This document shows positions 9,169-48,360 of a stretch of DNA of 48,758 nucleotides, piece after piece (within the stretch, counting starts at the first letter, position 1; the number at the start of each line of letters is the position of its first letter). The notes beneath the pieces were generated by a model. It saw only the letters and a list, made by a program, of their open reading frames with translations, searched no databases and was not told the origin of the DNA. The translations under genes and the position numbers were made by a program. Where the stretch lies: positions 1-48,758 of the forward strand of contig CAZSLT010000001.1 of NCBI GenBank assembly GCA_964607595.1, given 5' to 3'. This stretch comes from an uncultured Phycisphaeraceae bacterium (GTDB taxonomy: Bacteria; Planctomycetota; Phycisphaerae; Phycisphaerales; UBA1924).

Positions 9169-9190
9169 TGACGCACGGAGCGGCGGGCGA

Positions 9191-20301: not shown

Positions 20302-20305
<4 letters not shown>
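19745..20305 (-). CDS. Small lipoprotein, unknown family (186 aa), compositionally atypical
   Basis: MSKAITTFLFVVLAIAMAGC is a signal peptide with a lipobox-like AMAGC. Its ATG overlaps the moxR stop (ATGA), and its stop directly abuts the DUF58 ATG. My hand count gives about 55% G+C. Confidence 0.7.
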
Positions 20306-21342
<1,037 letters not shown>

Positions 21343-21373
21343 TTCAACAACTCCATTCGCCGCTCGGGGCGAC

Positions 21374-32900: not shown

Positions 32901-33671
32901 CCGCGCCGGCAGGAGAGCGCGCCGCGCGTCGTAACTGGAGCGTTCCTGCTCGAGCGCCGCGATCGAAGCCTCCAGGTGGAGGCGCTGCGCGTATTGCAAC
33001 ACCCGCTGCGATCGGGCCGGCTCTTCCGAAGGCAACGCGCCGTTGATGCCCGCCGCACCGGACGCCGCGGAGATCGTCGCGGCCAGTTCCGAGAGCATCT
33101 GCCGCAGCCGCGCGAGCTCACCGGGAATCGCCGACATCACTTCGTCGCGCTTCGTCGCCTCGGCCGCGAGTTCGGTGACTTGCCCGCGTGCCGCCTCGAC
33201 CTCGGCCCGTGCCGCGGACGCCAGCTGCTCGATCTGTCCGAGTGTGGCGTCGGGCGGGGGCGCGACGACGGGATCGGCGGGCGGCTGTTGCAACTCGGCG
33301 CGGATGGCCTCAAGCCGCGCCGGCGCCTCTCGGGCGCTGCGTTCCAACTCCGCGACCTTGGAGCGCAGCTCCGACACAAGGGAGAGCAGACGCTGGGCCT
33401 CGCGGTAGTTCTTGACCTCGGTCCGCTGTTCATCGGGCGGGGTGTCTCCGCTTGCCAGCGCGGCCAGGCCGCCATCAATCCACGCGGCGATCGCCTCGAC
33501 GCTCGGTCCGGCGGGTGGCGAGGTCGGGGTCGGTGTCGGCGTCGGCGTTGCCGGGGCCGCGCCGGGCTCCAGCGCGGGCTGGGCGCGGACGCTCACCGGG
33601 GCCAGGAGCACGAGTGCGCCCAGCAGGATGAACCGGAGGTGCCGGGGCAGGATGGGCCCGTATCGTCTCAT
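29970..33671 (-). CDS. Large mechanosensitive channel, MscK/KefA-like (MscS superfamily)
   Basis: Signal peptide MRRYGPILPRHLRFILLGALVLLAPVSVRA. About 450 aa of periplasmic coiled coil, then multiple TM helices. C-terminal MscS core: FGLQEIFANFVSGLIILAERPVRVGDMVTVGSMEGTVTKIRMRATTI...LIIPNKQL. ATG 33671 was chosen; the ORF-track N-terminus would run across the tRNA gene. Confidence 0.85.
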   Translation of the reverse strand: MRRYGPILPRHLRFILLGALVLLAPVSVRAQPALEPGAAPATPTPTPTPTSPPAGPSVEAIAAWIDGGLAALASGDTPPDEQRTEVKNYREAQRLLSLVSELRSKVAELERSAREAPARLEAIRAELQQPPADPVVAPPPDATLGQIEQLASAARAEVEAARGQVTELAAEATKRDEVMSAIPGELARLRQMLSELAATISAASGAAGINGALPSEEPARSQRVLQYAQRLHLEASIAALEQERSSYDARRALLPARRDLAQRRVTETQKVAAAWDQIVTARRQAEAEAAAREAERLRREAARQHPVLRAFADQNAAFAKELTELQGPTGQPSPARQADGVEKRAEDLRQTMTRLRERVDNSSRLSDATGLLLRRHYASMGDAAAAERATEEVGERQRDAEYRILEIDEERDAVGDDAEALRDLLQRVEVDPTPVENQEALAAVARDLIAARRDYLGKLKSQLDQHSEALGRLQRAYRVLALEMRQANAYIESRILWVRSVDGPAIPDPRAAADAARWLTVGGEWERSIGAAWSRAVASPAKLAGVSCLLLALVWFRFAAPRLLKRTASRIASFRTDRFSLTILALLITVAMSMPLPALLWSIAWFLKLPVEPTEQALAASAGLRAAGVTLLALILTRSLLRTDGLGNAHFSWHTEGVRTLRRHLRWFVPTIVALWGVVIAMDHQSYSDAYNDSLGRICFIGAMLAMTVFLARILQPNGAVLRPVLAERRERWIWRLRALWYPLAVVLPIFLIALTLARYYYTALRLQDLLFQTLWLIGALVLLASLMARWLFIVRRRLAIESARRRREQLRAAAEAEKPPGDPSASTASSAPPPPPAADMADIDIPALDSRMRQAVGTGIGLAFLIGMMIIWTDVLPALRMLDRVQLWPTLAVQRVVAEDQTPPALPLTTAEAADAPTSTAEDPSRVQSPPGPIGALTNSVTRGTGDADPSQLRLTLADLGLAIFIGVIAVLAVRNLPAVVELILLQHLPLDGASRYALVSVFRYALALIGLTATMGAIGISWTSVQWLAAALTFGLAFGLQEIFANFVSGLIILAERPVRVGDMVTVGSMEGTVTKIRMRATTILGWDRKELIIPNKQLITDPVTNWTLSDSVQRVSVPVGVAYGSDLSTVERVLKEACGVVPGVLQDPAPIVMFRGFGNSTLDWEARVFVSGVDQIISARTALLYAIEAGFRRENIEIAFPQLDLHLRESEPLTRLLALPALEDSPPKLD

Positions 33672-33700
33672 CGGTCGTGATACACTAACCGACGAGTTCC

Positions 33701-33772
33701 GCGGGCGTAACTCAATGGTAGAGTGCCAGCCTTCCAAGCTGGATGTTGCGAGTTCGACTCTCGTCGCCCGCT
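33701..33772 (+). tRNA. tRNA-Gly (anticodon UCC)
   Basis: Cloverleaf read by eye. Acceptor GCGGGCG/CGCCCGC, D-arm ACTC-AATGGTA-GAGT, anticodon arm CCAGC-CTTCCAA-GCTGG (TCC), variable ATGTT, T-arm GCGAG-TTCGACT-CTCGT, discriminator T. CCA is not encoded. Confidence 0.9.
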
Positions 33773-33805
33773 TTGACGCACACAACAACGCGCCCGATCC
33801 GGCGA

Positions 33806-34318
33806 CTATCGAGCCGGCGGCGGTGATTGACCCACAGAAGCGCCCTGCTGATCCGCGGCCGCGGCGATCATCTGATTGCTCACCAGCCGCAGCACGATGC
33901 GCCAATCTTCAAGACTCCGCCGGTCCGCCGACGGCCCGAGCACTTCTCCCATCGCCTCGATCAGCAGGTCGATGACCATATCGTAATGCTCCGGCTTGGC
34001 GCCGTAGCCCGCGTGGCGTTTTCCGAGCGCCGCGAGCATCGCCGCGTTCTCCGCCGGATGCTCCAGGTTACGAACGACAGCGTCGAGCGAAGCGATGAGC
34101 TTCTCGGACTGCGACTTCAGGTCGCTCCGGAAGAGCGGGCGCAGGTGCGGCGCGGCCGCGAATAACTTGGCATAGAAGCGCTCGGCCAGAAGGAGCCCAT
34201 GTTCTTGGACCGCGCGAAAGCTCTCACGAAGTCGAATGATCAACGCGTGATCCAGCGGGACACTCGCCAAGGCGTCCTGCTTCTTTGATACGGCGATCGG
34301 GTGTCTATGCACTGGCAT
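33806..34318 (-). CDS. Single-domain globin (bacterial haemoglobin-like)
   Basis: FYAKLFAAAPHLRPLF (B/C-helix pattern) and LGKRHAGYGAKPEHYDMVIDLLIEAM (candidate proximal His in RHAGYG followed by the conserved PEHY). ATG 34318 has GAGGA 5-6 nt upstream. Confidence 0.7.
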   Translation of the reverse strand: MPVHRHPIAVSKKQDALASVPLDHALIIRLRESFRAVQEHGLLLAERFYAKLFAAAPHLRPLFRSDLKSQSEKLIASLDAVVRNLEHPAENAAMLAALGKRHAGYGAKPEHYDMVIDLLIEAMGEVLGPSADRRSLEDWRIVLRLVSNQMIAAAADQQGASVGQSPPPAR

Positions 34319-34414
34319 CGGAATCCTCACGGAAGGGTCGCCCCAACAGGACGCGGATTTCTTGCCAGAACCACGCCAAAGGCGGCGTGGGTGAGGCCTC
34401 AAGGCCGCTCGGTG

Positions 34415-37400
34415 TCATCGCGGCTCCTCGGCCGGGGCCAGTGTTGAAAGGATGACCTTGCGGGCCCAGTGGTCGAGCATCGGATTGATCCCCGTCTCAT
34501 TCAATACGCCTGCCAGCCCTTCGGGATCGCCCGCGACATGGTCTAGGATCGGCTGCAGGCGCCTCTTGGCCTCGTCCATCTCATTCCTAGATCGCATGCG
34601 TGCCGCGTCCGCGGCCTCCCGTGTCGCCGAGTCGAAAAGGCGAACCGTGCCGTCGTACGAGGCGGAGGCGATCCATCGACCATCCGGGCTGAACGCAACG
34701 CCTCGGATGGCGGACTCATGCGCGCGGAACGACGCGATCAGGTCGCGCGTCGCGACATCAAACAGCAAGATCTCTCCGAACCAGGAGCCCGCGACGAGTC
34801 GGGTCGCGTCGGCATTCATGGTCAGGCAGGTCACATACTGTCCATGGCCGGCCAGCGTCGCCACGGGTTCACCGGAGTCGACATCCCAGACGCGGATGGT
34901 CTGGTCGCGCGAACCCGAATAGAGTCGGCGGCCGTCCGGGTGAAACAACACGGCGAATACATCGGAGGCGTGGCCGAGCAATCGCGACACTTCCGTGCCC
35001 GAGGCCGCGTCCCAAAGCCGGACAGTTCCATCGCGCGACGCCGAGGCCACGAGCGCTCCATCAGGGCTGAATCGCAGTGAGTTCACGCGTGCCGTGTGAC
35101 CCTTGAGCACGGTCGGCCCATCCTTCGAGTCCAAGGCCCATACACCGATGGCGCCGTTCTCACCCCCGGCCGCGATGCGCCCGCCCGCCGGGTCGAACGC
35201 GACCGAGGCCACGCTGGTGCCGAGGCCTTCCAGCCGAGTCGTGACAACGCCGGTCATCGCATCCAGAACCCGAACGCTCCGGTCGTTCCAGGCGGACGCG
35301 ATCCACCGCCCATCCGGCGAGTACGCTAGCGCCCGCGACTGGCCGCCGCCGGGCGCGATGCGTGCGATGGGGACGCCGAGGTCAGGATCCCACACACGCA
35401 CCGCTCCGTCACGCGATGTCGAAGCGAGCACGGCGCCGTCGGGTGAGAAGACGACGCCCATGACATGATCGGTGTGACCGTGAAGCGTCGTTGTTCCCGA
35501 GGGGGCCGCGGCTTCGGCCGTCCGCCAGGTGCGAAGCGTTCGATCCCAGGACACGGAAGCCAAGACCGCGTCGTCCGGGCTGAACGCCAGCCCAGCGACA
35601 CCGTCCGTGTGCCCGCCGAACTCTCCGACAACCCCGCCGTCCTCGGTCGAGCAGATCACGATCCCGCGATGGATCAGCCCGGCGACGATCAGCGAACCGT
35701 CGTTCGAGATCGCAAGCGATCGAATCGTGTTCACACCCTGCGTCGCCTCGAACTCGTGGATCAGCGCGCCGTCCGACAGTCTCCAGAGCAACATGCGACT
35801 ATTGGCGCCCGCGGCCGCCATCCGCGTCGCGTCGTTCGTGAAACGAACCTGCCTTACGGTCCCCGGGAACTCGAACCGAGAGACGACCGCCAGATCCTCG
35901 GCCCGCCGCACCCATACATGACCCACGTCGTTGTAGGTCGCAAGTAGACTCCCATCGGGTGAGAGGTCGATCCCGCGGATCCCACCGGGCTGGTCGTCGG
36001 GGAATCTCGTCTCGGTCCGCGGCTCGAGCGTCCAAATCCTCGCGTCGCCATTGCCTGTCGCAGCTGCGATCCGGCCGTCGTTGAGCGCGACGACGCGCCG
36101 AACGCCCGCCGACATCTTGGCGATCACCTCGATCTCGCGCAGGTCATTCCCGTTGAGGAGCCGGACCGTGCCACGCGCATCTCCGGTGATGATCTGCCTC
36201 CCAGTTCGCGAAAACACGACCGTTTGGACCTGGACTCCTTCTTCGCCGGCGTGCGTCGCGATCAGCGATTGGTCCGCGGCGTTCCAGAGCCGCGTCGAGC
36301 CGTCGCGGCAGGCCGTCGCCAGGCGCGTCCAAGCGGCGTCGGACGCGAAGTCCATGATCATGTCGTCGTGCGCGACGATCGCCGACTCGCTCCGGTCGGC
36401 GAGCCGTGAGAGGAAGCCCCACTCCCAGTGCCGCTCGTGCGTCGCCGACGCCGCGAGCCGCGCGCGTAGCTGCTCAAACTCTCCGGTCTTCATCGCCGAA
36501 AGCGCGCCGGCGATCTGCGCCGTGTAGGCCTGCCAACGGGCCAGATCGCGCTCGCTGGTGATCTGCTCCTGCGCCTCCCGTCTGGCGCGGACCTCGGTGC
36601 CCAGACGGAACGCGAAACCCGTGCTGATCGCGGCCAGCAGCGCAATGCTCGTGATGACGGTGAGGACGGCCGCGACAAGCGCCGGATTCCGACGCGCAAA
36701 CATCCGGAGCTGATCGACGAGCCCCGGCGGTCGCGCCTCGATGGGCATGTGTTCGAGCCAGCGGCGCAGGTCGGTCGCCAGGGCCGCGGCGCTCTCGTAT
36801 CGGCGCTCCGGCCGTTTGTCGAGGCACTTGAGAATGATTGCTTCGAGGTCGGCATCGTGCTTCCCTCCCAGGAACTCCGGGCGCCTGGGCGGATCGTGAA
36901 TGATCGAGTGGATCGCCGCGGGGATGGGCGACGAGTTCAGATCGTGCGGCAGCCGACCGCAGGCGAGCTCGTAGAGCATGACGCCGAGCGAGTAGATATC
37001 GGCGCGGATGTCGATGTCCGCCGGCGCGCCGCACTGCTCCGGGCTCATATAGTTCAGCGTGCCGACGATGCGCCTCGCGTCCGAGTTGGCCGTGATCGAC
37101 TCGGCCCCGGCCTCGGTGGTGCGTGCCACGCCGAAGTCGATGACCTTGGCGCGACCCTCGCCGTCGACGAGGATGTTCGCCGGTTTGAGGTCGCGGTGAA
37201 TGACCCCGTGCTGGTGGCCGTAATGAACGGCGTCGCACACGCTGGCGAGCATGCTCAATCGCTCGCGGAGCGAGAGCCGGTGCTGTTCTGCGAATTGCGT
37301 GATGGTGACCGCGTCGGGGATAAGCTCCATCGCGAAGAACGGCGCCGGAGACGGCTGGCCGAGCTGGGCCGCGCCCGCCTCGTAGACCTGCGCGATGCCG

Positions 37401-37828
37401 GGGTGATGCAGCCGCGCCAGCGTCTCGGTCTCGAACCGGAATCGCAGGTACGCGTCCGCGTCGGCCATCGCGTGATTGAGCACCTTCAGCGCCACCCGTC
37501 GCTTGGGCTGTTCCTGAATCGCCTCGTACACCGTCGCCATGCCCCCGACACCGAGCACACCGACGATCAGATAGGTGCCGACGGCGTCGGGGATCGGGCG
37601 CGGCTCGCCCCGGGCGGCCTCCAGCGCCGGCCGATCGAGAAAGTTCGAGGTCTTATCGGCCGCGTCCAGCAGCGCCAGCACCCGCTTCATCAGCGCGGGA
37701 TCGTCCGGGCATTGCGAGCGCACGAATTCGCGCCGATGGGCCGGGTCCTGCTCCATCGCGCGCATGAGCAGCGCGTGCGAGCGCCGGGCCAGTTCAATCT
37801 CCGGCGGCATCGGAGCGCTCCGGCTCAT
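34415..37828 (-). CDS. Ser/Thr protein kinase with one TM helix and a long canonical WD40 beta-propeller region
   Basis: Kinase motifs [37 protein letters not shown]. TM helix [19 protein letters not shown]. More than 10 WD40 units (for example [31 protein letters not shown]). The start is either ATG 37828 or ATG 37810; both overlap the sigma gene end. Confidence 0.9.
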   Translation of the reverse strand: [1137 protein letters not shown]

Positions 37829-38390
37829 GGTCTGAGAGTCTGTGGAACAGCCACGCGCGGGCCACCTGCCAGTCGCGATCAACGCTCCTGGCGCCGATGG
37901 ACATCGCCTCGGCGACCTCGGGGACGGTCAGTCCGCCGAAGAATCGCAACTCGACAATCCGGGCCTGGCGCTCGTCGATCTCGGCCAGTTCATCGAGCGC
38001 TTCGTTCAGCGCGACAAGGTCGAGCTCACGATCCGGCGCCGCGATCTCCTGGTCCTCGATGCGGACCCGTTGCTGCCCGCCGCCCCGCTTCAGAGCGTGG
38101 CGCTCGCGCGCGTGGTCGATGAGGATCCGCCGGATAATCCGCGACGCGATCGAGAAGAAGTGCAGCCGGTCGTTCCACTCAGCGGTCCGCTGATTCACCA
38201 GCCGAAGGTACGCCTCATGCACCAGCGCTGTCGGATGGAGCGTGTGACCGGCGCGCTCGTTCCGCAGTTGACTGGCCGCCAGACGCTTGAGGTCATCGTA
38301 AATCGCCGACATCAGCCGCTCGGCGTCCCGCGGATCGCCGGAAGACGCGGCCCGCAGAAGCATCGTGAGGTCGCCGGGCGCATCGTTCAT
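37794..38390 (-). CDS. ECF-type RNA polymerase sigma factor, kinase-associated (ECF43-like / Sig-70_X6-like)
   Basis: Region 2 ...TALVHEAYLRL...RLHFFSIASRIIRRILIDHARERHALKRGGG. Region 4 ...LRFFGGLTVPEVAEAMSIGARSVDRDWQVARAWL. AGGAG lies 9 nt upstream of ATG 38390. Confidence 0.85.
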   Translation of the reverse strand: MNDAPGDLTMLLRAASSGDPRDAERLMSAIYDDLKRLAASQLRNERAGHTLHPTALVHEAYLRLVNQRTAEWNDRLHFFSIASRIIRRILIDHARERHALKRGGGQQRVRIEDQEIAAPDRELDLVALNEALDELAEIDERQARIVELRFFGGLTVPEVAEAMSIGARSVDRDWQVARAWLFHRLSDHEPERSDAAGD

Positions 38391-38542
38391 GCCGGTGGCT
38401 CCTGTCGGGTCGGGGCGCCGCTCGGACGCCCTTGTGCGGCACTCTATCACCGCGCCGCGCGGCTCGGGAATCGCCAACGCCCCGGCGGCGTCGCGGGCCC
38501 GGGGCGGTGGTGTCGGTAGTGGAGAGGTCTTTGGCAAGGGAG

Positions 38543-39229
38543 TTACATTCGTGCGCGGCGCCGGCGGGTCACGCCCGTCAACCCCGCGACTCCCATCGCC
38601 GTCAGCACGCCCGGCGAGGGGATCAAAGTAAAGTCGTCAACGAAGGCCGACTGCGGGTTCATGACCGCGTTCACACCATCGACCATCTCGACCCTCGCCC
38701 GCACGAACGCCGTGCCGGGCGCCGAGACGCCGTCGACCGTGAACTCACGCCACACGCTGTCCCGCGGGTTGAGCAGGTTGATGTCGAGCATGGCCGAGGC
38801 GACGACGAGCTTGTCGGAGTCGAGGAACTCCATCACGAGGTTTGTCGCTTCGCTCTGGTAGTGCTCCTCAAACTTGAACCAGGCCGAGAGGGAGTACTCG
38901 CCGCCGGGCGCGGCCGGCACATCCTGGTAGAGCTCCGCCCGGACGGCGGGAGGGGCGTCCTCGTTCCAACCGCCCTCAAACGACCTCAGCCACAGGCCGC
39001 GCTCCCCGCCGGGCGTGTGATTGGCGAAGTTGGTGAAGCTCGCCGAGTTGGCCGTATCGCCGATGAAGTCGAGCGAGGGCTCGATCAGCGTCCAGCCGAC
39101 GACGGCCTCAGACTCGCCGGGGCCGCCGATGGGCAGCTCGAGCGACCCGTTCATCAGCAAAGACCTGGCCTGGGCGGTCCCGGCGCTAGCGGACGCCAGA
39201 AGAAGGACTGAGAGCGTTGTGCGGTGCAT
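38543..39229 (-). CDS. Secreted jelly-roll/CBM-like protein with PEP-CTERM-type C-terminal sorting signal (228 aa)
   Basis: Signal peptide MHRTTLSVLLLASASAGTAQA. C-terminus IPSPGVLTAMGVAGLTGVTRRRRA (Pro-x-Pro, hydrophobic helix, Arg cluster). Confidence 0.7.
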   Translation of the reverse strand: MHRTTLSVLLLASASAGTAQARSLLMNGSLELPIGGPGESEAVVGWTLIEPSLDFIGDTANSASFTNFANHTPGGERGLWLRSFEGGWNEDAPPAVRAELYQDVPAAPGGEYSLSAWFKFEEHYQSEATNLVMEFLDSDKLVVASAMLDINLLNPRDSVWREFTVDGVSAPGTAFVRARVEMVDGVNAVMNPQSAFVDDFTLIPSPGVLTAMGVAGLTGVTRRRRARM

Positions 39230-39292
39230 CTCTTGACTCCTGTGCAGGGGGCTCACGGCCCGTTAGTTCCTGTGAACAAGTGTGGGTTGACC

Positions 39293-41485
39293 TCAGAGGA
39301 CGCGGGAACGGCCCCGACGACGCGCCACAAAGAGCCCGCCGGCGCCCAGAATCACGCCGGACGCGGGGGAGGGCACGATGTTGTCGAGCCGCAGCACGAC
39401 CGAGTTCGGGTGGTAGAGGACCGACCACTCATAGGTCGCCGAGCCGACCTGGGTCACCGGGTCGTGGTCGAACGAGCCGGTCACCGACCCGGCCGCCAGC
39501 AGGATCTCGAACTCGTCTCCGATGCTGGGGTAGAACATCCCCGTCCCCGGGTCGACAAGCAGGACATCCAGCACACCGTCGAGGAACGCATCTCCGCCCG
39601 AAACGATCAGCAGGTCGTGCTCATCGCCCGCGAGGTGCCCGCCGAGCGTGACCTTCCAGATCGCGTCGGCGGTGCTGTCGAAGCGGTCCACGCTGGCCGC
39701 GCCCGCCGAAAAGATGGTCTCGCCGAACCCGACTTCAAAGACGCCGTCGTTGATCAGCCCGATCTGGTTGAGCGAAACGCCGTCGCTGAGGGAGAATTCC
39801 GTGTCGGAGCCGTTGCTGATCGTGCCAAGGCCCGTGAACTCCGCGCCGGGCTGGACGATGGTGTCGCCCGTGACACGGAGCACCGCGGAGGCAGGGCCGA
39901 TGTCCACCGTGCTGATCGCGCTGATTAGAAGGTCAGAAGAGATGCCGGCGCGTCCCGACTCGAGGACCAGATTCCCGTACATCTGGAGCGCCGATCCGGA
40001 AATCCGAAAAACATTGAAGTGCGGGCCGCCCGTGAGGTGCATCTCACCGTAGTGGCTCCACGGTCCCTCGGACATGTTCATATGCAGCTTGGCGGTGAGC
40101 CCTCCGCCGATGTCCATGCTGCCCGTAAAGCTGCTCGCCCCGTTCGACTGAAGCGCCTCCGCATTCACCGCCAGGTTTGAGTGGATATCCCAGTGCGCGT
40201 CGCCCGAAGCGCCGTCCATGTCGAAGGTGTCCGCGGTGATGACCGCCCCGAGCGAACTGCTCACCTCGGCGTCCCCGTTCTGCCGGGCCACGCCATTGAG
40301 GGTCACTTGCCCATCCCATTCGGTCGGGCCGTTGAAGAACACGCCGCCGTCCGCCAGACTCGCGGCAAAGGAAGTGAACTCACCGCCGCGCATCGTTGTC
40401 GGCCCGTCGAAGTCAATCCGTGCTTCCTCACCGGCGATGTACGCACCACCCTCGACCGTGGTCGGCCCGTCAAACTCAAGCCATCCGGACGGGCCGAGGA
40501 AAGAGAAGGCGGTCGATTCCAGTGTCGCCGGCGCCAGCACCCTCAGGTGACCCTGGTCCCCAGCAATCCCGACATTCCCGCCGATCGAGAAATGCTCGCC
40601 GCCGATGAGCGACGCTGCGTTCGGCGTTCCATTGCCAATGACAAGGATCCCACCGTTCGAGTCGGTCGACCAGCCACCGCCGACATTCATGTTCAGATAG
40701 CTCCCCGGCGACATGTAGATGGAGCCGCTGAACGCGTCATTCATCGACTCGGCGTTGACCTCAAGAACGCTGAACGGTGTATCGAGGCGGATCTGACCGT
40801 CGCCGGTCAGACCATCGAGGTCAATCCAGCCCGTGCCGATCTGAGTCAGCGTCATCCCGCCGTTGTTGGAGGGGATGATCCAGCCCTCGTTCCGGAAGCC
40901 GTCGCTGTCATTGAGACCGAACTGAATTTCGCCAAGCCCCGTGATCGATCCGTTGTTGATCGATCCGCCGTGCAGGTACGACTTGGAGCCGTTATGCAGC
41001 TCGATGACGGTGCCAGGGGCGGTGTCCAGCCGGCCCCACATGTCGAAGGTGCTCACGACAGAACTGCTCGGGCGCACAATCAGCGTCGAGCCCACATCCT
41101 CCAGCCGCAGCACGCCAGTGGTGTGCAACTGGCTCCCGCCCAGGTCGAGCGTGGCGCCGTTGGAGATCTCCATCGACTCGGCGAAAATCGTAAACGCGGT
41201 GCTCTCCCACAAGCCCATCGTCACCGTGTCGCCGTGCGCCGCCGGCAGGTCGCCGATGTGGATCTGCCCGTCCGTCTCGCCGAAAGTCCCGGGAGCCCCG
41301 AAGACCGGCGCGCCGTTGGCCATCCAGTTCGTCGTCAGCCAATCGCCGTCGCCACCGAGCCAGGACCAATTGACGCCCCCATAGGCGGGGACCGTCATCC
41401 CGGTCGCGGCCAGCAACGCCGCGATCACCGGGCGGCCCAGCGATCGGGCCGAGGAACATTGCGAGTTCAGTGTGTCAGGATGCAT
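39293..41485 (-). CDS. Large secreted beta-helix-repeat protein with PEP-CTERM-type sorting signal (730 aa)
   Basis: N-terminal signal, then a W..G....W....NW opening (VNWSWLGGDGDWLTTNW) as in autotransporter-associated beta-strand repeats. Gly/Asn-rich repeats. C-terminus VPSPASGVILGAGGLFVARRRGR. It is a paralogue of the next gene. Confidence 0.75.
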   Translation of the reverse strand: MHPDTLNSQCSSARSLGRPVIAALLAATGMTVPAYGGVNWSWLGGDGDWLTTNWMANGAPVFGAPGTFGETDGQIHIGDLPAAHGDTVTMGLWESTAFTIFAESMEISNGATLDLGGSQLHTTGVLRLEDVGSTLIVRPSSSVVSTFDMWGRLDTAPGTVIELHNGSKSYLHGGSINNGSITGLGEIQFGLNDSDGFRNEGWIIPSNNGGMTLTQIGTGWIDLDGLTGDGQIRLDTPFSVLEVNAESMNDAFSGSIYMSPGSYLNMNVGGGWSTDSNGGILVIGNGTPNAASLIGGEHFSIGGNVGIAGDQGHLRVLAPATLESTAFSFLGPSGWLEFDGPTTVEGGAYIAGEEARIDFDGPTTMRGGEFTSFAASLADGGVFFNGPTEWDGQVTLNGVARQNGDAEVSSSLGAVITADTFDMDGASGDAHWDIHSNLAVNAEALQSNGASSFTGSMDIGGGLTAKLHMNMSEGPWSHYGEMHLTGGPHFNVFRISGSALQMYGNLVLESGRAGISSDLLISAISTVDIGPASAVLRVTGDTIVQPGAEFTGLGTISNGSDTEFSLSDGVSLNQIGLINDGVFEVGFGETIFSAGAASVDRFDSTADAIWKVTLGGHLAGDEHDLLIVSGGDAFLDGVLDVLLVDPGTGMFYPSIGDEFEILLAAGSVTGSFDHDPVTQVGSATYEWSVLYHPNSVVLRLDNIVPSPASGVILGAGGLFVARRRGRSRVL

Positions 41486-41577
41486 GAAGACTCTCCCTGT
41501 GCCGCGGGCCGGGGCCCGCGCTGTGTGCGTGTGAACCAACCGATGAGTGTGTGGAGTGACCGAGATGGCCGGCGCCA

Positions 41578-43788
41578 TCACGCCCTGCGGCGGATCGAGA
41601 CGACCAGCCCGCAGAGCCCGATGAGCGCCACGCTCCCCGGCGTCGGGACGACGCTCTCGAGCCGCAGCGCCACCGTGTGCGGGTTGTAGATCACCGACCA
41701 GTGATAGGTCGCCGAGCCGACCTGGCTGATCGGGTCGTCGATGAAGGTCCCCGAGACGACGCCGACCGAGGCGAGAATCGTGAACTCGTCGCCGACCTGT
41801 GGCAGAAACAGACCGGCGCCGAGATCGACGAGATCAACCGTCAGCAGCCCGGCGAGCGTCGCCCCGCCGCCGGAGACCAGAAGCTGATCGCGCTCCGTGC
41901 CCGCGTCATACCCACCGAGCGTCACCGCCCAGATGGCCGAGTCGCTCGACTCGAAGCGGTCCACCGACGCGATCCCCGCGGAGTCCGGCGAAGCGTCATC
42001 ACCGCCCAGCGCCAATAACCCCTCGTTCCGCAGCCCGACATCATTCAACGCGGCACCGCCGAACAGCCGCATCTCGCCACCTTCGCCGTTGACAAGCGTG
42101 CCCACACCCGCGAAATCGGCCCCCGCGTGGACCGTGGTCCGGCCCCGCATCCGCAGGGCGGCGTCGGCCCCGCCAAGTTCGAGCTCCGACCCGCCGAGGA
42201 ACGCGATATCCGACTCGATCTGCGCCTTGCCGCTCGGCAGGACCATCGACCCCGAGTAGTCCAGCGCCGAACCGCTCAGCCGAGTGACGAAGAACGGGTT
42301 CAGGCCGGTGAGATGAATGTCCGCATCCGACGACCACGCGTCGTCGGCGACATGAACCCTGAGCTCCGAGAGGAACCCGCCGCCGATCGTGATGGAACCG
42401 CCGACGCTGTCCGAGCCGTCGGACTGCAGCTGCTTCGCGTTCACGGTCAGCGGGCTGGCGATCGTCCAGTGGGTCGAGTTCGTGACACCGTCCATGTCGA
42501 AGCGACTCGCGTTGATCACCGCGCCCAGGCCGCCGTTGCTCGCAGCATCGCCGTTCTGACGGACGAATCCGTTGAACGACGCGGCGCCTTCCCACGATGT
42601 CGGCCCGTTAAACAAGACCCGGCCGCCCGTGCCGCTGTCATCGTCGGTGACGAAAGATCCGCCTTGAACCGTCGTCTGGCCGTTGAACCGCAGCTCGGCG
42701 CCCTCACGAATCTCGAAGTTGCCGCCCTCGACATTGACACTCGTACCCGTGTCCAGGCCGAAGTCGGCCACCGTCCCGGCGCGCAGCCCGACGCGCGCCT
42801 CAGGCAGCAGATTGAATGTGCTCGACTCGATGCGCATCTGAGCGCCCTCGCCGCCGGTGAGCTTCAAGTCGCCTGCAAACGAGAACTCGCCGCCGCGGAT
42901 CACCGCCGGGCCGTGCTCGTACTCCGGGAACCCCGCGACCCAGAAAGTGCTGTTGGCATCCGCGGTCCAACCCTCGGTCAGGTTCATGAAGAGATCGGCG
43001 TCGTAGCCCATCGTGATCTGGCCGCTGAAACTGTCGGACAGCCCGACGCCGTCCATCCGCACGGTGGAACCCTGGCCGGCATCGGGGTCGTACGAGCCCA
43101 TATGGAGGTGCCCATCGCCGCTCGTCCCGTCCAGATCGAACCGGCCGTCGCCGGTCTGCAGCATCCTGATCCCGGTGCCCGAGCCGACCTGGATCACGCC
43201 GTTGTTGATCAGCGTCGATCCGCTGCCGTGGAAGGTCAGGTAGCCGTCGCCGTAGATCGAGCTGTCGTTATTCACCAACTGCCCGTCGAAATGCGCGATC
43301 GCGTTCACCAGCCGGAGCTGCGCCAGGTCATTGAGCGTCAGATTGTCGGCGCCGAGCGACAGTCCGTCGACTGATCCGAGCCGGAGACGAGACCGATAGA
43401 GAAAACTCCCCGTGCCGTCATCGAACGGCACCGAGTTATGCCCCGAGATCTCGATATCGCCGTTCACACGGAGCGATGAATGACCGGTATCCAGTGTCAT
43501 CCCGTTCACAATGGTCAGCCCCGCGATCGTCTCCGGGACATTGAGGTGCACCGTCGAGTTCCCCGTGCCGGGGTGCACACCCATGAACACATTGGCCGCC
43601 TCGGTCGGCGCCACCGGCAGCGACCAGTTCAGCGGCACCGACCACTGATCGCTCACCATCCCGGTCCACTGCCACTGCGCCGCCGCGGGCGAGGCAAGCC
43701 CCGCCGCGATCATCAACGCCGCTGCATTCCCCATGCCCCGCGGGGCGTGTGCGCGCCCCGCCGTCGTCGGACTCCCTGCTCGCTTCAT
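41578..43788 (-). CDS. Large secreted beta-helix-repeat protein with PEP-CTERM-type sorting signal (736 aa)
   Basis: Signal ...GNAAALMIAAGLASPAAAQWQWTG. Collinear similarity to 39293..41485 (FNGPTSWEGAASFNGFVRQNGDA vs FNGPTEWDGQVTLNGVARQNGDA; QVGSATYHWSVIYNP vs QVGSATYEWSVLYHP). C-terminus VPTPGSVALIGLCGLVVSIRRRA. ATG 43788 is preceded by AGGAG. Confidence 0.75.
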   Translation of the reverse strand: MKRAGSPTTAGRAHAPRGMGNAAALMIAAGLASPAAAQWQWTGMVSDQWSVPLNWSLPVAPTEAANVFMGVHPGTGNSTVHLNVPETIAGLTIVNGMTLDTGHSSLRVNGDIEISGHNSVPFDDGTGSFLYRSRLRLGSVDGLSLGADNLTLNDLAQLRLVNAIAHFDGQLVNNDSSIYGDGYLTFHGSGSTLINNGVIQVGSGTGIRMLQTGDGRFDLDGTSGDGHLHMGSYDPDAGQGSTVRMDGVGLSDSFSGQITMGYDADLFMNLTEGWTADANSTFWVAGFPEYEHGPAVIRGGEFSFAGDLKLTGGEGAQMRIESSTFNLLPEARVGLRAGTVADFGLDTGTSVNVEGGNFEIREGAELRFNGQTTVQGGSFVTDDDSGTGGRVLFNGPTSWEGAASFNGFVRQNGDAASNGGLGAVINASRFDMDGVTNSTHWTIASPLTVNAKQLQSDGSDSVGGSITIGGGFLSELRVHVADDAWSSDADIHLTGLNPFFVTRLSGSALDYSGSMVLPSGKAQIESDIAFLGGSELELGGADAALRMRGRTTVHAGADFAGVGTLVNGEGGEMRLFGGAALNDVGLRNEGLLALGGDDASPDSAGIASVDRFESSDSAIWAVTLGGYDAGTERDQLLVSGGGATLAGLLTVDLVDLGAGLFLPQVGDEFTILASVGVVSGTFIDDPISQVGSATYHWSVIYNPHTVALRLESVVPTPGSVALIGLCGLVVSIRRRA

Positions 43789-43894
43789 CGTCTTGACTCC
43801 TGTGTGACGCCCCCGCTCCGGGTCTGACTCCTCCGGGGGCATGCACAAGGACGCGACATCCGCCCCCGCACCGCGCCAGGGATCGACGCGAATA

Positions 43895-43920
43895 CACCGA
43901 CGCAGCCGAGGTCGATCAAC
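43895..43920. repeat. Direct repeat copy 1 (CACCGACGCAGCCGAGGTCGATCAAC)
   Basis: 22 of 26 positions are identical to 44132..44156. It contains the imperfect palindrome GTCGATCAAC, centred on GATC. Confidence 0.5.
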
Positions 43921-44131
43921 ATCGGGGTGGGGCCGGATTTCAAGGCGCACAATGGTCGCTCTCGCAGATAGCGGCCATGAGCACTCGGGCCGATGAAAGG
44001 CCCGAGCGCAACGCCAAAACACGCCCCGGGGGAGGTGGCCCCCGGAGCGCGGCTCTAAAGAAGTGAACGCGGCGGGCCGGCAACACCGGTCGCCCGCCGG
44101 ACGCCCATACGCCGGCCGAAGCGCACCCCGC

Positions 44132-44156
44132 CACCGACGACCCCGAGTCGATCAAC
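44132..44156. repeat. Direct repeat copy 2 (CACCGACGACCCCGAGTCGATCAAC)
   Basis: Second copy of the intergenic repeat, 237 nt from copy 1, in the same orientation. Confidence 0.5.
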
Positions 44157-44199
44157 GCACATGCAGGGGGGGTTCACCCTGCGATCATGAGATTCCGGA

Positions 44200-44227
44200 T
44201 TAGAAATCGTTCATTCGTGGGTATAGT
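44200..44227 (+). promoter_or_regulatory. Candidate sigma70-like promoter of the divergent ECF sigma gene
   Basis: TTAGAA (44200-44205), a 16-nt spacer, then TATAGT (44222-44227), inside the only AT-rich patch of the spacer. The -10 element ends 8 nt before ATG 44236. Confidence 0.25.
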
Positions 44228-44235
44228 CGGTTCTG

Positions 44236-44841
44236 ATGAGCGAACCCCAGCCAGCATCGGACGGGCACGCCGGGACGAACACCCTGATGCTGCGCCTCTA
44301 TGACGAGGTGCGCAAACTCGCCCACGACCGCCTCCGCCACCAACGCTCCGGCACGCGGTTGCAGACCACCGAAGTGGTCCACGAGGTCTACATCAAGCTC
44401 TCTCGCGCGGGCGGAGCCGGTTGGGAAAGCCGCGCCCACTTCTTCGGATCCGCGGCCAGGGCGATGAAGCAGGTGCTCATCGACTTCGCACGCCGCTCCC
44501 AGCGTGCCCGCATCGCAGGTCAGAACCCCGATGAACTCTCCGCGGATCACTCTACGGAGCCCGATCAGTTTCCAGACTCCGGCGCCTCGCTCGGCGTCAA
44601 GTTTGAAGGCAAGGACTACTCATTCAGTCTCGATGAACTGGCCATGCGTCTGCAGGAGCTCGACGAGATCGATCCACGACGCGTCGATGTTGTCGTCTGC
44701 AAGTTCTTCGCGGGCATGAGCGAGGATCAGATCGCCTCGTTCCTTGGCGTTTCGACCAGGACGGTCCAGCGCGACTGGCAGTACGCACGGGCATGGCTCG
44801 GCCAGCACATCCTCGGGAGCGCGCACGATCATGGATCTTGA
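44236..44841 (+). CDS. ECF-type RNA polymerase sigma factor, kinase-associated, divergent paralogue
   Basis: Region 2 ...TTEVVHEVYIKL...RAHFFGSAARAMKQVLIDFARR. Region 4 ...CKFFAGMSEDQIASFLGVSTRTVQRDWQYARAWL. It lacks the KRGG motif of the other copy and has a longer inter-region linker. Confidence 0.8.
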   Translation: MSEPQPASDGHAGTNTLMLRLYDEVRKLAHDRLRHQRSGTRLQTTEVVHEVYIKLSRAGGAGWESRAHFFGSAARAMKQVLIDFARRSQRARIAGQNPDELSADHSTEPDQFPDSGASLGVKFEGKDYSFSLDELAMRLQELDEIDPRRVDVVVCKFFAGMSEDQIASFLGVSTRTVQRDWQYARAWLGQHILGSAHDHGS

Positions 44842-47800
44842 CCTCGAACGCCGGGCCGCCGCGGCGTTCGATCGGGTCTTCGGCCTCTCGGGTGAGAGTC
44901 TGACCGTCGCGCTGCACCAGGAATGCGGCGATGACGCCTCCCTTCGCGCCCGCGTCGAGGAACTCCTGCGAGCCGCCGAAAGAGAAGCGTTCTTTCTGGA
45001 CGGCAATTTCGCGACCCCGGGAGACCTCAACACGCCACCGGTGGGCGGGACCGAGGAGTGGGGGGGCGAGTCGGGCGATGCCCTGCCCGCAAGGATCGGC
45101 GACTGCGAGATCCTCGGCGTGCTCGGGACCGGCGGGATGGGCATCGTCTACGAGGGCAGGCAGGATCAGCCGCGACGCCCGGTCGCGATCAAGGTCGTGC
45201 GCGCGCCCGGCGTCACCCGCGCCGGCCTGGCGCGATTCCGTCAGGAGGCGGAACTGCTCGGGCGGCTCGACCACCCCGGAATCGCCAAGGTATTCAGCGT
45301 CGGGATCCATAAGACGCCCGCCGGCGATTTCCCGTTCCTGGTCATGGAGCTGATCCCGGGCGCCACACCCATCACGCAGCACGCGCAGTCGCGCCGGCTC
45401 TCGTGGCACCAGCGACTGGAGATGCTCGCCGACGCATGCGACGCCGTCCAGGCCGCGCACACCGCGCTCATTGTCCACCGCGATCTCAAACCCGCCAACA
45501 TTCTCGTCGGCGCCGACGGGCGGGTCCGCGTCATCGACTTCGGCATCGCCAAATCGCTCTCGCCCGACGCCGGCCTCCCCACCATCCCCACCGAGGGGTC
45601 GAGAGTCGTCGGGACCGTCCATTACATGAGCCCGGAACTCCTGACTCGCGGGGCGACTGCGGCCAGCACACAGTCCGATGTCTTCTCCCTCGGCGTGTCC
45701 ATGCACGAACTCCTGCTCGGGACGCGCCCGTTCGGCGATGATCAGACGACCATGTTCGAGGTCATGCGCCGCATCACCACGGCGACCGCCCCCCCGGACT
45801 CAAAGGCGTTCCGCGGCCTCAACCCCGATCTTCGCACCATCCTCGGCAAGGCCATCGCCCCCGATCCGCGCCACCGCTACGCAACGGCGCGGGACCTGGC
45901 CGACGACATCCGCAACTTCCTCGCCCGCCGCCCGATCGCCGCACGCCCGCAGAGCCGCGCCTACCTGGCGGCGATGTTCGTCCGGCGTCACCGCGTCGCA
46001 ACGGCGCTCTCCACGATCGCGGTCCTGGCCCTGATCACGCTCACCGTGTACAGCGTCGCGGCCGGCATCGGTGAGAAGAACGCCCGCATCCTCGCCGATG
46101 ATCGCGCCGTCGCCGCTTCAAAGGAACTCTACAGAGCACTGATGGGCTCCGCCGCCCGCGCCATCGAGGACGGCGACACCGCCACCGCCGTCAAACAACT
46201 CAGAGTGGCGCCCGAGGAGTGGCGCGGCCGCGAACATGCGCTGCTGACGGCGATGGTTTCGTCCGCCAGCCGTGTCGTTAAGACCGGATCATCCATCGAA
46301 TCACTCGCGATCGCCGCTGACGGCTCGGTCCGGTTCGTCAGCAGGTTGGGCACGGGCGAGTGGAACGATCGCGGCATTGAGACGACTCAGTTGATCCCGC
46401 TCCCTCAAGGAGGAGGACCGCCGCCCCGCCTCGTTCACCACTCGACGGACCCCGAACTGAAGATCGTCGCCCACGAAGCGCCGTCGGCCATGGAGACCGC
46501 GCGGCTCATCTTCGAACGCGCCGGACAAGCCGCCCAGACTCTCAACGGGACCATCACCCGTCTGATGGCCTCCGCGATCGATCCGTCTGGCCAACTCTTG
46601 GCGATCAGCGGCCCGGCGATGGCCATCGACGGACGCACCGTCGTTATCGATACCGTCCGGGGCGAGGTCACGGGATCGATCGACCGGATGGGCGCGGTCG
46701 TCTTCTCCCCGGATGGATCGACCCTCTGGATCGCCGGCATGGGGCTGTCTCGTCTCGACCTGCGTACGGGGATCGCCGAGCACGACCTCGCCGATGGCCT
46801 CGAAGGCCGCTGCGAGTCGATCGCGATCAGCGCGGATGGCGCAAGGTTGGCGGTCAGGTCCACGGTCGCCGTCCATGTCTTTGATCCGATCGGATTGAGC
46901 CTGGTGCGGGAGATTCGGTCCGTTGGGTCGGGCCCCATCGCCCTTGACGAGACAGGGCGCTGGCTCGCGATCGCGGACGGTCAAGTCGTGACGCTCATCG
47001 AGACGGACACCGGCGCCGTCGCGGAACGGCTAAGGTCGCCGACATCGACTCCCGTCGCGATCGCGTGTTCCTCGGTCCATGATCGTCTTGTCGCGGCCGA
47101 GAGCGACGGCACGCTCCACTCGTGGGACTCGCTGATGACCCGCATCGAGGATCAACGCCGCGTCTCCGAACAGTTCGGAGTGTCCGCCGACGGGAGCGTG
47201 ATCTGGACGATCTCCGCGGAGCCCGAAGACAGCCCCGAGCTGCGGCTCCTGAGCACGAGAGCCGCCGGCGAGGGTCACACCGTGCCCGTAACGAAGGCCC
47301 CCACAATCGCCGCTCTCAGCAAGGACGGCCGCTGGCTCGCGTGGTCGGAGTCGGACGGACGCCTCATGCTCCGCGCCCCCGACGGGGCGGTGCGGACGGT
47401 CCCTCCGGATGGCGCGATGGCGATCAGTCACCTCGCGGGGTTCGGCTCCGATGAACCGTTGATCGCCTGCTGCGTTTCGGCCTATGGGCGCGACCCCGAG
47501 TGGCGGATCATCCAATCTGGCGACGCCGCGCAGACGGTCTACTCCGGGCCGGCCGACGGTCTGATCGATCTCCGCGAAACCCCCGACGGAGGCCTGCTCG
47601 CGGTGTTTGTGGATCGGCTGGAAGTTTTCAATCCGATGGGACACCGAGCCTCGGAAATCAAGCTGCCCGAGATGCCCTTCCTGGCCCGCAACACTCCCGA
47701 CAGTCAGACCATCGCGGCACTCTTCGTTGATGGCGGCATCAGCGTGATATCCGCCCTCACTGGCGCGGAGGCGTGGCGTCTCGCATCGGGCTGGTCCGGG

Positions 47801-48028
47801 CCGGAAGTACTGGCGATGTCCATTGAGTCGCCGGACCGCATCACGCTCATCCGCTCCGACGGCGTCCTGGGCGTCTGGGACCGCGCCTTCGGCGATGAAC
47901 CCATCATGACGATCTCGCTTGTCGAGCCATCCGAACGCCCGAGGGCCGCCGAGGTGAGCCGCGACGGTGTGATCTTTCTCGGCCTTGCGGGCGGAGGTCT
48001 CCGTGTCCACGGGCGGCCCGAGGACTGA
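44831..48028 (+). CDS. Ser/Thr protein kinase with one TM helix and a degenerate WD40-like beta-propeller region
   Basis: Kinase motifs GTGGMGIVY, VAIKVV, HRDLKPANIL, IDFGIA, YMSPEL. TM helix ALSTIAVLALITLTVYSVAA. Repeated ..SxDGxxLA.. units (FSPDGSTLWIAG, ISADGARLAV, LSKDGRWLAWSESDGRLML) lack the GH/WD dipeptides. ATG 44831 overlaps the sigma gene by 11 nt. Confidence 0.85.
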   Translation: MDLDLERRAAAAFDRVFGLSGESLTVALHQECGDDASLRARVEELLRAAEREAFFLDGNFATPGDLNTPPVGGTEEWGGESGDALPARIGDCEILGVLGTGGMGIVYEGRQDQPRRPVAIKVVRAPGVTRAGLARFRQEAELLGRLDHPGIAKVFSVGIHKTPAGDFPFLVMELIPGATPITQHAQSRRLSWHQRLEMLADACDAVQAAHTALIVHRDLKPANILVGADGRVRVIDFGIAKSLSPDAGLPTIPTEGSRVVGTVHYMSPELLTRGATAASTQSDVFSLGVSMHELLLGTRPFGDDQTTMFEVMRRITTATAPPDSKAFRGLNPDLRTILGKAIAPDPRHRYATARDLADDIRNFLARRPIAARPQSRAYLAAMFVRRHRVATALSTIAVLALITLTVYSVAAGIGEKNARILADDRAVAASKELYRALMGSAARAIEDGDTATAVKQLRVAPEEWRGREHALLTAMVSSASRVVKTGSSIESLAIAADGSVRFVSRLGTGEWNDRGIETTQLIPLPQGGGPPPRLVHHSTDPELKIVAHEAPSAMETARLIFERAGQAAQTLNGTITRLMASAIDPSGQLLAISGPAMAIDGRTVVIDTVRGEVTGSIDRMGAVVFSPDGSTLWIAGMGLSRLDLRTGIAEHDLADGLEGRCESIAISADGARLAVRSTVAVHVFDPIGLSLVREIRSVGSGPIALDETGRWLAIADGQVVTLIETDTGAVAERLRSPTSTPVAIACSSVHDRLVAAESDGTLHSWDSLMTRIEDQRRVSEQFGVSADGSVIWTISAEPEDSPELRLLSTRAAGEGHTVPVTKAPTIAALSKDGRWLAWSESDGRLMLRAPDGAVRTVPPDGAMAISHLAGFGSDEPLIACCVSAYGRDPEWRIIQSGDAAQTVYSGPADGLIDLRETPDGGLLAVFVDRLEVFNPMGHRASEIKLPEMPFLARNTPDSQTIAALFVDGGISVISALTGAEAWRLASGWSGPEVLAMSIESPDRITLIRSDGVLGVWDRAFGDEPIMTISLVEPSERPRAAEVSRDGVIFLGLAGGGLRVHGRPED

Positions 48029-48033
48029 TGCGT

Positions 48034-48360
48034 TCACACCGGCTCCTCGACCCAGCCGAGCCAGGTCTGCGGGCCGACATTCGGCACGATGATGCAGTAC
48101 TGATGCAGCCGCTGATGCGTCGGCTCCATCTGCTGCCCCAGCAGCGCTACTTGCGTGTCTGCGAGGGCGGTATCGGTGGGCGGATCGCCGCATGAACTCC
48201 CGCTGTTCGTCCAGCCGCTCTCGAACCGCCACTCCGTCCAGGAGTATTGGATGCCGCCAACGGTCCCAGTGCACGCCCACCGCCGCTGCAAGCCATGATG
48301 CAATGTGCCGCTGATGCATGCCCATACCGTCTGGGTGAGTTTGGTCGCTTCGCAAGTCAT
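48034..48360 (-). CDS. Hypothetical small Trp/Cys-rich protein (108 aa)
   Basis: GGAGG lies 7 nt upstream of ATG 48360. About 80% of codons end in G/C by my count. I see no signal peptide and no recognisable family. It is convergent with the kinase gene, with 5 nt between the stops. Confidence 0.5.
   Translation of the reverse strand: MTCEATKLTQTVWACISGTLHHGLQRRWACTGTVGGIQYSWTEWRFESGWTNSGSSCGDPPTDTALADTQVALLGQQMEPTHQRLHQYCIIVPNVGPQTWLGWVEEPV

Follow-up and report, generated by a model that had tools for sequence, protein, structure and literature searches.

A conserved sigma factor-kinase cassette with secreted beta-helix protein genes and a globin gene in a Phycisphaeraceae contig

The stretch of DNA analyzed here, termed the window, is the complete 48,758-nucleotide (nt) contig CAZSLT010000001.1 of an uncultured Phycisphaeraceae bacterium (assembly GCA_964607595.1; contig end at position 48758; G+C 66-70%). 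Near that end, two gene pairs (modules a and b), each encoding an extracytoplasmic function (ECF) sigma factor and a Ser/Thr kinase, flank three genes for secreted proteins (cargo 1, 2 and 3), and a globin gene follows module a (Table 1). A reading made from the sequence alone had joined these genes into one self-contained sense-and-display island, in which both modules drive a set of exosortase (PEP-CTERM) cargo. Comparison with other genomes divides the region into two separate things, namely a conserved cassette built on module a and a distinct module b pair. This comparison supports a functional tie between module a and the cargo genes, and to that extent the island proposal stands; its two other parts, joint control by module b and dedication to exosortase sorting, do not. 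The reading that we favor, and consider probable, is that kinase a phosphorylates sigma a, that sigma a then acts on a promoter motif ahead of the genes for the surface proteins and the globin, and that module b is separate.

The module a cassette

Cassette loci were collected from the contigs that carry cargo homologues and from a scan of the GTDB species genomes. Homologues of cargo 3 are few, with only 10 among 5.8 billion proteins. The cassette, which consists of two genes for beta-helix proteins of about 730 amino acids (aa), sometimes a small gene, the ECF sigma gene, the kinase gene and usually the globin gene, was present in at least 13 independent Phycisphaerae/Pirellulales loci (window/L001, L002, L005, L006, L008, L012, L014, L015, L016, L019, L020, L027 and L029). 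Cargo identity in these loci is at least 36% (36-49%), and the cargo genes adjoin an orthologous sigma-kinase pair, in which the sigma factors are 58-67% identical to sigma a (paralogues, 44-53%) and the kinases are 48-66% identical in the kinase domain, with either WD40 or TPR sensors. Because the flanking genes differ between loci, the cassette is a conserved unit rather than part of a conserved chromosome region.

When metagenomes were scanned with the sigma alignment, a single orthologue was recovered (L029, 62% identical), together with cargo, kinase and globin genes, along with 79 paralogues. Forty-two of the paralogous loci are 4 kb or longer (444 kb in all); they contained no cargo homologue, globin or PEP-like tail, and in most of them the kinase gene lies directly downstream of the sigma gene. 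The link to cargo and globin is specific to the sigma a orthogroup, and the sigma-kinase pairing itself is a known trait of the family. Planctomycetota genomes hold many sigma-kinase pairs and many PEP-CTERM-like genes (PMC11032199; PMC1569441), and two gene classes so numerous might come to lie side by side by chance. Against this, the same orthologous set, with cargo identities of 36-49%, recurs in at least 13 loci that have differing flanks and a common motif, and we regard chance adjacency as extremely improbable.

All eight open reading frames (ORFs) of the sequence-only reading are present in the ORF list, and the genes were checked by Pfam and NCBIfam scans; the tails, overlaps, kinase features and propeller features that it had described were each found where claimed. 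Both sigma factors contain sigma-2 and sigma-4 regions only and are of the Sig-70_X6 / PF07638 type. Sigma a scored 217.5 bits against TIGR02999 (Sig-70_X6; cut-off 126) and matched PF07638 with an E-value of 1.6e-58, compared with 2.4e-33 for sigma b, and the shared C-terminus RDWQxARAWL is RDWQVARAWL in one and RDWQYARAWL in the other. A Hanks-type kinase gene directly adjoins each sigma gene, an arrangement found also in the orthologues, and no anti-sigma domain was detected in the eight genes or in the scanned flanking ORFs, among which small ORFs were not covered exhaustively. Between the sigma a TGA (37796-37794) and the kinase a ATG (37810) the overlap is 17 nt, or 35 nt if the alternative ATG at 37828 is used, and the sigma b TGA (44839-44841) overlaps the kinase b ATG (44831) by 11 nt.

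Both kinases match Pkinase at an E-value of about 1e-41 (8e-42 for kinase a and 1.9e-41 for kinase b), retain intact HRDLKPANIL and DFG motifs, carry a C-x-DD...L...V..LL segment ahead of the kinase domain and have one hydrophobic transmembrane (TM) helix just past it, at residues 377-395 in kinase a and 396-414 in kinase b. The pre-kinase motif was seen in 3 of 48 control kinases, for which the extraction of N-termini was unreliable. The propeller of kinase a is a canonical WD40 array (PF00400, E-value 4.7e-86), whereas the sensor of kinase b, earlier described as a degenerate repeat, gave faint Pfam matches only; its AlphaFold model (predicted local distance difference test score, pLDDT, 72) matches tandem WD40 propellers by Foldseek (Apaf-1, 3shf, E-value 3e-20). 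The kinase topology is kept across the orthologues, and kinases with a single TM helix and periplasmic WD40 or TPR arrays are common in Planctomycetota (PMC11032199).

Cargo 2 and cargo 3 are paralogues that share 38% identity. The AlphaFold model of cargo 3 (pLDDT 87.2) is a long right-handed beta-helix, for which Foldseek returned Ag43 (7koh, E-value 1e-6), Hbp, EspP, Hap and pertactin. Cargo 3 is nevertheless not an autotransporter, as it has no C-terminal beta-barrel and ends in a single helix after residue 716. Cargo 1 has a homologue only in L001, the closest relative of the window, and its only family match is a weak one to NTTRR-F1 (E-value 0.002). By eye, all three proteins begin with signal-peptide-like N-termini, and they end, as first described, in IPSP, VPSP or VPTP followed by a hydrophobic stretch and RRR(R). 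There are 16-19 hydrophobic residues between the motif and the arginines, and Ser or Thr stands in place of the Glu of PEP.

This arrangement of a signal peptide, a C-terminal motif, a helix and a basic cluster is the PEP-CTERM layout, although the window tails fall just below the curated cut-offs: against TIGR02595 (cut-off 16) cargo 2 scored 15.2 bits, cargo 3 scored 14.3 bits and cargo 1 gave no match, and against PF07589 (cut-off 20.7) cargo 2 and cargo 3 scored 12.2 and 18.1 bits. Despite these scores, the cargo family is clearly of the PEP-CTERM class, because orthologous VP[AT]PG tails exceed the TIGR02595 cut-off (18.2-24.9 bits) and more distant cargo homologues carry the canonical VPEP (18.9-25.5 bits). 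No exosortase domain was found among the larger window ORFs scanned against Pfam, in agreement with the earlier observation that the window holds no exosortase gene.

We compared the C-termini of cargo homologues in L014, L019, L020, L027, L010, L018 and L022. The family has three kinds of end, VP[AST]PG-TM-RRRR, VPEP-TM-RRR and a Cys-flanked dockerin/EF-hand-like double repeat, and a PEP tail and a PAP tail are both encoded in the single locus L018. In the orthologous cassettes of L014, L019, L020 and L027, dockerin/EF-hand-like C-termini replace the sorting tail. Since some family members, even within the cassette, end in this way, the C-terminal anchor is interchangeable, and the proposed link of the module to exosortase cargo as such fails on these four cassettes. 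Judged by these comparisons, module a is linked to the body of the cargo protein and not to exosortase sorting.

The globin scored 47 bits against PF00042 (cut-off 22), and the solved structures that it matches best are 3s1i, 3ubc, 1vhb and 3ozu. Aligned to the hemoglobin-like flavoprotein 3s1i, it keeps Tyr B10, Gln E7 and His F8; with the globin fold, the proximal His and no reductase domain, it is a single-domain bacterial globin. Translation starts at the ATG at 34318, which has a GAGGA Shine-Dalgarno sequence, and not at the TTG at 34402. Globin orthologues (52-68% identical) directly follow the kinase gene in L005, L006, L008, L014, L015, L029, L111, L113 and L115. At 55% identity or more, the globin has over 120 relatives (clusters), and in all three sampled long-contig loci the genes just before it encode a sigma a orthologue and a TPR kinase. 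From the number of these relatives and the sigma-kinase pairs in all three sampled loci, the sigma-kinase-globin triad is the widespread core in Phycisphaerae to which varying secreted proteins are attached; the complete genomes CP054186.1 and CP075368.1 carry it. In L002 (Phycisphaerales UBA5793) the globin slot is taken by a gene for a membrane protein of 180 aa, and genes for heme synthesis come after it (a ferrochelatase/GlutR fusion and HemN; 18830-22211). The same locus has an FHA-PP2C (SpoIIE) phosphatase gene (8239-9873) directly upstream of the cargo, the product of which may be a partner phosphatase.

The promoter-like motif and the proposed circuit

Upstream of the cargo genes throughout the cassette loci lies a two-block motif with the consensus TGGCGYR-N16-CCGCGTC (more fully TGGCG[CT][GA]-N16-(C)CGCGTC(C)T) and constant spacing. 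The window has exactly three copies, ahead of cargo 3, cargo 1 and the globin. A strict pattern, TGGCGC-N15-18-CGCGT, matches the window twice, both times before a cargo gene, and the globin site is added when T is allowed at the sixth base. Per 100 kb, the strict pattern occurs 5.83 times in the cassette loci, 0.19 times in the control loci and 0 times in window positions 1-33600; the motif is about 30 times denser in the cassette loci than in the 1 Mb of control loci. A scan with a position weight matrix (PWM) gave about 38 cassette sites at 21 bits or more versus 0 control sites. In three globin-centered loci outside the set from which the PWM was made, matches lie before the globin, a cargo homologue, and genes of 407/410 aa and 890 aa.

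All motif sites are co-oriented with the downstream ORF, and the reverse-strand PWM score at the same 41 sites is at most 0.4 bits. This strict directionality toward the downstream gene argues for a promoter rather than a symmetric operator. Two other kinds of site were considered and rejected. TGGCGC resembles the -24 element of a sigma-54 site, but it is not followed by a conserved GC at 10 nt, and the distance to the second block is 17 nt. GGCGCG and GACGCG look alike, as the halves of a palindromic site for a dimeric regulator would, but the low reverse-strand scores and the directional sites speak against it.

Ahead of the globin, the motif is located in the 96-nt gap past the kinase a stop codon. 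It stands 30-37 nt before the globin start in 7 of the 7 globin-bearing cassette loci first examined, and precedes the globin in 2 of 3 further globin-centered loci (L111 and L115). The globin gene had been described as following module a on the same strand, and its position is as described, but with a motif of its own it is not a mere downstream neighbor. The position of the motif before cargo 3 places the cargo 3 start at 43788 and not at 44022. The cargo 1 motif is kept in L001 at 7629-7656 (PWM score 31.2); in the window it falls within the 3' end of the cargo 2 ORF, where the same bases encode VARRRGRSRV, the end of the basic tail.

A third family of motif-bearing genes, with none in the window, encodes secreted proteins of 390-460 aa at full length with a conserved N-terminal domain (L005:12469-13026, L006:13143-14312, L015:2792-3979, L029:8426-9802, L113:5150-6373 and L115:5355-6587). 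Its C-terminal segment N[IL][KR]Q[LI]GLG[ML]HTFEA recalls a DUF1559/pseudopilin-like motif, and the L005 copy is truncated to 185 aa.

The proposed circuit begins with region 2.2 of sigma a. In ECF43 sigma factors, the adjacent kinase phosphorylates a Thr of the sequence QTTA, which provides the charge required for binding to core RNA polymerase (PMC13147305, PMC8999054). The pattern that marks such sigma factors, a region 2.2 without DxxD and with a conserved Thr (PMC13147305), is found in sigma b as well as in the sigma a group. Members of that group have (H/Q)PTA here, within (H/Q)PTALVHEAY, with Thr54 invariant among 13 sequences; the acidic DxxD motif is absent from sigma a in the alignment. 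Since the DxxD patch is absent and region 2.2 has an invariant Thr, sigma a would probably be inactive until phosphorylated, and because that Thr stands at the position of the ECF43 QTTA phospho-Thr we propose a phospho-activation circuit.

Sigma a and kinase a would be translationally coupled and transcribed from a housekeeping-type promoter of their own, located after a hairpin that would end the cargo transcript; upstream of the sigma a gene there is a hairpin with a TAnnnT element, and no regulon motif was found there in the window. The periplasmic propeller of kinase a would sense an extracytoplasmic cue, most likely a protein or envelope ligand, upon which kinase a would phosphorylate sigma a. 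Phosphorylated sigma a would then direct RNA polymerase to TGGCGYR-N16-CCGCGTC promoters, of which the three in the window would drive cargo 3 (with cargo 2), cargo 1 and the globin. The predicted output comprises two Sec-exported, Ag43/pertactin-like beta-helix paralogues and a small protein, held by a PEP-CTERM-class C-terminal anchor, as well as a cytoplasmic single-domain globin.

Several points weigh against this circuit. Its support is comparative sequence evidence throughout: gene content, orthology and synteny, and the conservation, direction and position of the motif, are observed, and from them we infer phosphorylation, promoter function, the sigma factor that reads the motif and the signal. 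Sigma a is likened here to ECF43, but the planctomycetal kinase-linked groups ECF59-62 and ECF217 are alternatives (PMC7826278). The PWM was built from the sites that it scores, the independent measures being the strict-pattern counts, the controls and the three later loci, and the control loci are mostly from other taxa, with a G+C content of 58.5% versus 63.3%. Many ECF promoters typically have AAC in the -35 half, and TGGCGC does not contain it. No separate motif precedes cargo 2 in the window, and for that reason cargo 2 is probably co-transcribed with cargo 3. The motif precedes the sigma gene in two loci only, L012 (2436-2463) and L016 (7026-7122); from these sites the sigma factor may be autoregulated in some lineages, and not in the window. 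In L016 the stretch holds two back-to-back motif copies in a divergent region. Finally, L018, L010 and L022 have the motif before cargo homologues that no sigma-kinase pair adjoins, so that adjacency of the sigma gene is not obligatory and another sigma factor could read the motif.

These three loci bring in a different explanation, in which the motif is read by a regulator encoded elsewhere, either an ECF sigma factor or a DNA-binding protein, and the pair stays beside the cargo on other grounds; the beta-helix proteins might, for instance, bind the propeller as ligands or partners. Consistent with it, the sigma gene is usually without the motif, the sensors swap between WD40 and TPR arrays, both of which are protein-binding scaffolds, and in L010 (9852-16623) a cargo homologue with a weak motif (17.8 bits) is accompanied by an OmpR-type response regulator and a histidine kinase in place of the sigma-kinase pair. 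The form of the motif argues otherwise: its two blocks have fixed spacing, it is strictly directional, and it lies at promoter distance from the start codons. A -10 half with CGTC is typical of ECF promoters, and among the DNA compared the motif tracks the sigma a orthogroup and is nearly absent elsewhere. We consider a regulator encoded elsewhere rather unlikely, and the kinase a-sigma a circuit the better account of the motif.

Module b and the contig end

Module b belongs to the same family as module a. Sigma b, with QTTE at the sigma-2.2 site, is 34% identical to sigma a, and kinase b is 37% identical to kinase a over the first 471 residues. The two modules had been called paralogous, which is accurate as to family and not as to a recent origin: at these identities, recent duplication of module a into module b is ruled out. 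Full-length orthologues of kinase b were limited to two proteins (P0012 and P0013), each of which, with its own sigma factor, adjoins a type II secretion-like cluster (L109 and L110) comprising a secretin, type II secretion proteins E, F and G, pseudopilins, a TPR protein and a 109-aa gene. The sigma b orthologue in L109 is 48% identical, and an exact-sequence look-up of sigma b found no record. No cargo, globin or motif was found in the L109 and L110 loci.

It had been proposed that both modules jointly control the three cargo genes as a self-contained island for exosortase (PEP-CTERM) cargo, and parts of the evidence agree with this: in the window, and likewise in the 91%-identical relative L001, module b is the divergent neighbor of cargo 3, both sigma factors are of one family with a Thr at the sigma-2.2 site, and orthologous cargo tails pass TIGR02595. 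The window and L001 are, however, the only places where module b stands beside cargo, as it is absent from the other approximately 12 cassette loci, and its orthologues are found beside the secretion-like cluster, without cargo, globin or motif. In L014, L019, L020 and L027, the sigma factor, kinase and motif are kept, yet the cargo has dockerin-like ends, and the 447-bp divergent region between module b and cargo 3 yielded no further conserved motif. Joint control of an exosortase island is in our judgment unlikely. On the comparative evidence, module b is a distinct sigma-kinase pair of the same family without a tie to the cargo genes.

The sequence GGGTATAGT occurs 9-10 nt before the sigma b start codon in the window (44200-44236, plus strand), in L001 and in L109. 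This placement suggests a -10 element of the housekeeping type and a transcript with little or no leader. Past kinase b, the 108-aa ORF is 43-48% identical (E-value about 1e-28) to L109:13161-13490 and L110:3445-3774. Because this last ORF is an orthologue of the 109-aa gene, the type II secretion-like cluster probably begins at the contig end. Upstream of the ORF lies CGACAA-N15/16-TCATCGCTT (window 48408-48434, minus strand; L109 13536-13563), which, as a candidate drawn from two sequences only, could be a sigma b target. The cargo genes of L006 and L007 have the orthologous secretion cluster immediately upstream of them, a hint only that the module b/secretion and cargo neighborhoods may be related.

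A more far-reaching possibility is that the globin, induced by the sigma factor, would give feedback on the O2, NO or redox state to the kinase or the sigma factor and so couple gas sensing to adhesin-like display, with module b and the type II secretion-like cluster exporting the same proteins. If true, the contig end would be an integrated sense, secrete and display unit; we think this improbable.

The remainder of the window carries ordinary chromosomal genes (PBP2/RodA, a helicase, phosphoglucomutase, ThiG, an ABC transporter, BatA/DUF58/VWA genes and an MscK-type channel). A tRNA-Gly(TCC) gene at 33701-33772 on the plus strand, 34 nt past the globin 3' end, forms the cassette boundary on that side. 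The long MscK-type ORF, listed from 33905, crosses this tRNA gene, and so its true start must be further downstream. A generic sigma-70 promoter scan of positions 33600-48758 gave no promoters, and a terminator scan of the same interval gave 4 terminator-like sites versus 5.8 expected.

Table 1 Features of the two sigma-kinase modules, the cargo and globin genes and the motif sites in the window.
Feature	Position	Strand	Description
Globin	33806-34318	-	Single-domain, 170 aa; predicted regulon member
Motif before globin	34351-34378	-	TGGCGTGG-N-CCGCGTCC; 32 nt upstream of ATG; PWM score 28.9
Kinase a	34415-37810	-	Hanks Ser/Thr kinase with pre-kinase segment, one TM helix and extracytoplasmic WD40 propellers
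Sigma a	37794-38390	-	ECF sigma factor, Sig-70_X6 / ECF43-like type
Cargo 1	38543-39229	-	228 aa, secreted, IPSP-TM-RRRR tail; lineage-specific
Cargo 2	39293-41485	-	730 aa, secreted beta-helix protein, VPSP-TM-RRR tail
Motif before cargo 1	39300-39327	-	Exact match to strict pattern; PWM score 32.9
Cargo 3	41578-43788	-	736 aa, secreted right-handed beta-helix protein, VPTP-TM-RRR tail
Motif before cargo 3	43851-43878	-	Exact match to strict pattern; PWM score 26.5
Sigma b	44236-44841	+	Second ECF sigma factor of the family; TIGR02999 148.6 bits
Kinase b	44831-48028	+	Ser/Thr kinase, one TM helix, divergent tandem beta-propeller
108-aa ORF	48034-48360	-	In L109 and L110, its orthologue comes after the kinase b orthologue and borders the secretion cluster

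Comparison with known systems

By its sequence features, module a appears to belong to the known class of kinase-activated ECF sigma factors. The wiring had been thought undescribed, and this holds for the instance but not for the principle, as EcfK/PknS with its type VI secretion system (T6SS) is already known (PMC13147305). What is new is the orthogroup, the predicted promoter consensus and the output set of interchangeable-anchor surface proteins and a globin; the signaling logic itself was known from EcfP/PknT and EcfK/PknS. In the searchable literature, the coverage of which is incomplete, we found no paper describing this cassette, and we found there no known regulon or promoter for any planctomycetal kinase-linked ECF sigma factor. 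The cassette offers a testable regulon with one sigma factor, a putative phospho-site at Thr54, one promoter consensus and a small output set; it ties a globin to a kinase-gated sigma factor, and it shows one protein family switching among three kinds of C-terminal anchor.

Like module a, EcfK/PknS of Xanthomonas citri and EcfP/PknT of Vibrio parahaemolyticus have no anti-sigma gene nearby and a co-encoded, single-pass Hanks kinase. At region 2.2, ECF43 sigma factors have QTTA, members of the sigma a group QPTA or HPTA, and sigma b QTTE, in each case non-acidic with a Thr. EcfK has the gene cluster that it controls, encoding the T6SS, adjacent to it, as is proposed for module a (PMC13147305). 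Module a differs in belonging to another phylum and in having WD40 or TPR arrays as sensors, and its predicted outputs are secreted beta-helix proteins and a globin, in contrast to the T6SS or polymyxin resistance of EcfK and EcfP.

The only regulators tied to PEP-CTERM genes so far had been said to be of the PrsK/PrsR type, in agreement with Haft 2006 (PMC1569441), and that founding paper left open which regulators act on such genes outside Proteobacteria. In the PrsK/PrsR/PrsT system, as in the cassette, dedicated regulators and a common upstream motif mark PEP-CTERM-type genes, each with a promoter of its own (PMC1569441). That system combines a histidine kinase with an NtrC-type activator at -24/-12 sigma-54 promoters and is confined to Proteobacteria, whereas the cassette has an ECF sigma factor, a Ser/Thr kinase and a -35/-10-type motif without GG-N10-GC, and its link to the cargo persists when a dockerin-like end replaces the sorting tail. 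From these sequence differences, module a appears to represent a regulator class for PEP-CTERM-type genes distinct from PrsK/PrsR (PMC1569441).

The proteins of the predicted output also have known relatives. The cargo 3 model shares its beta-helix with the passengers of the autotransporters Ag43, pertactin, Hap and Hbp/EspP (Foldseek probability 1.0, E-values down to 1e-6), at low template-modeling scores (TM-scores of 0.2-0.28) and about 12% sequence identity; unlike the autotransporters, the cargo proteins have no barrel translocator, and their anchor is a PEP-CTERM-class tail or a dockerin-like module. The globin resembles Vitreoscilla Hb, the hemoglobin-like proteins of Methylacidiphilum and the globin domain of Hmp in its PF00042 fold and in Tyr B10, Gln E7 and His F8. 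Unlike the single-domain globins of the flavohemoglobin lineage, the cassette globin has a conserved N-terminal extension, MPV[HR]RHPVA, and is fixed in place after the sigma-kinase pair with an ECF-type motif of its own.

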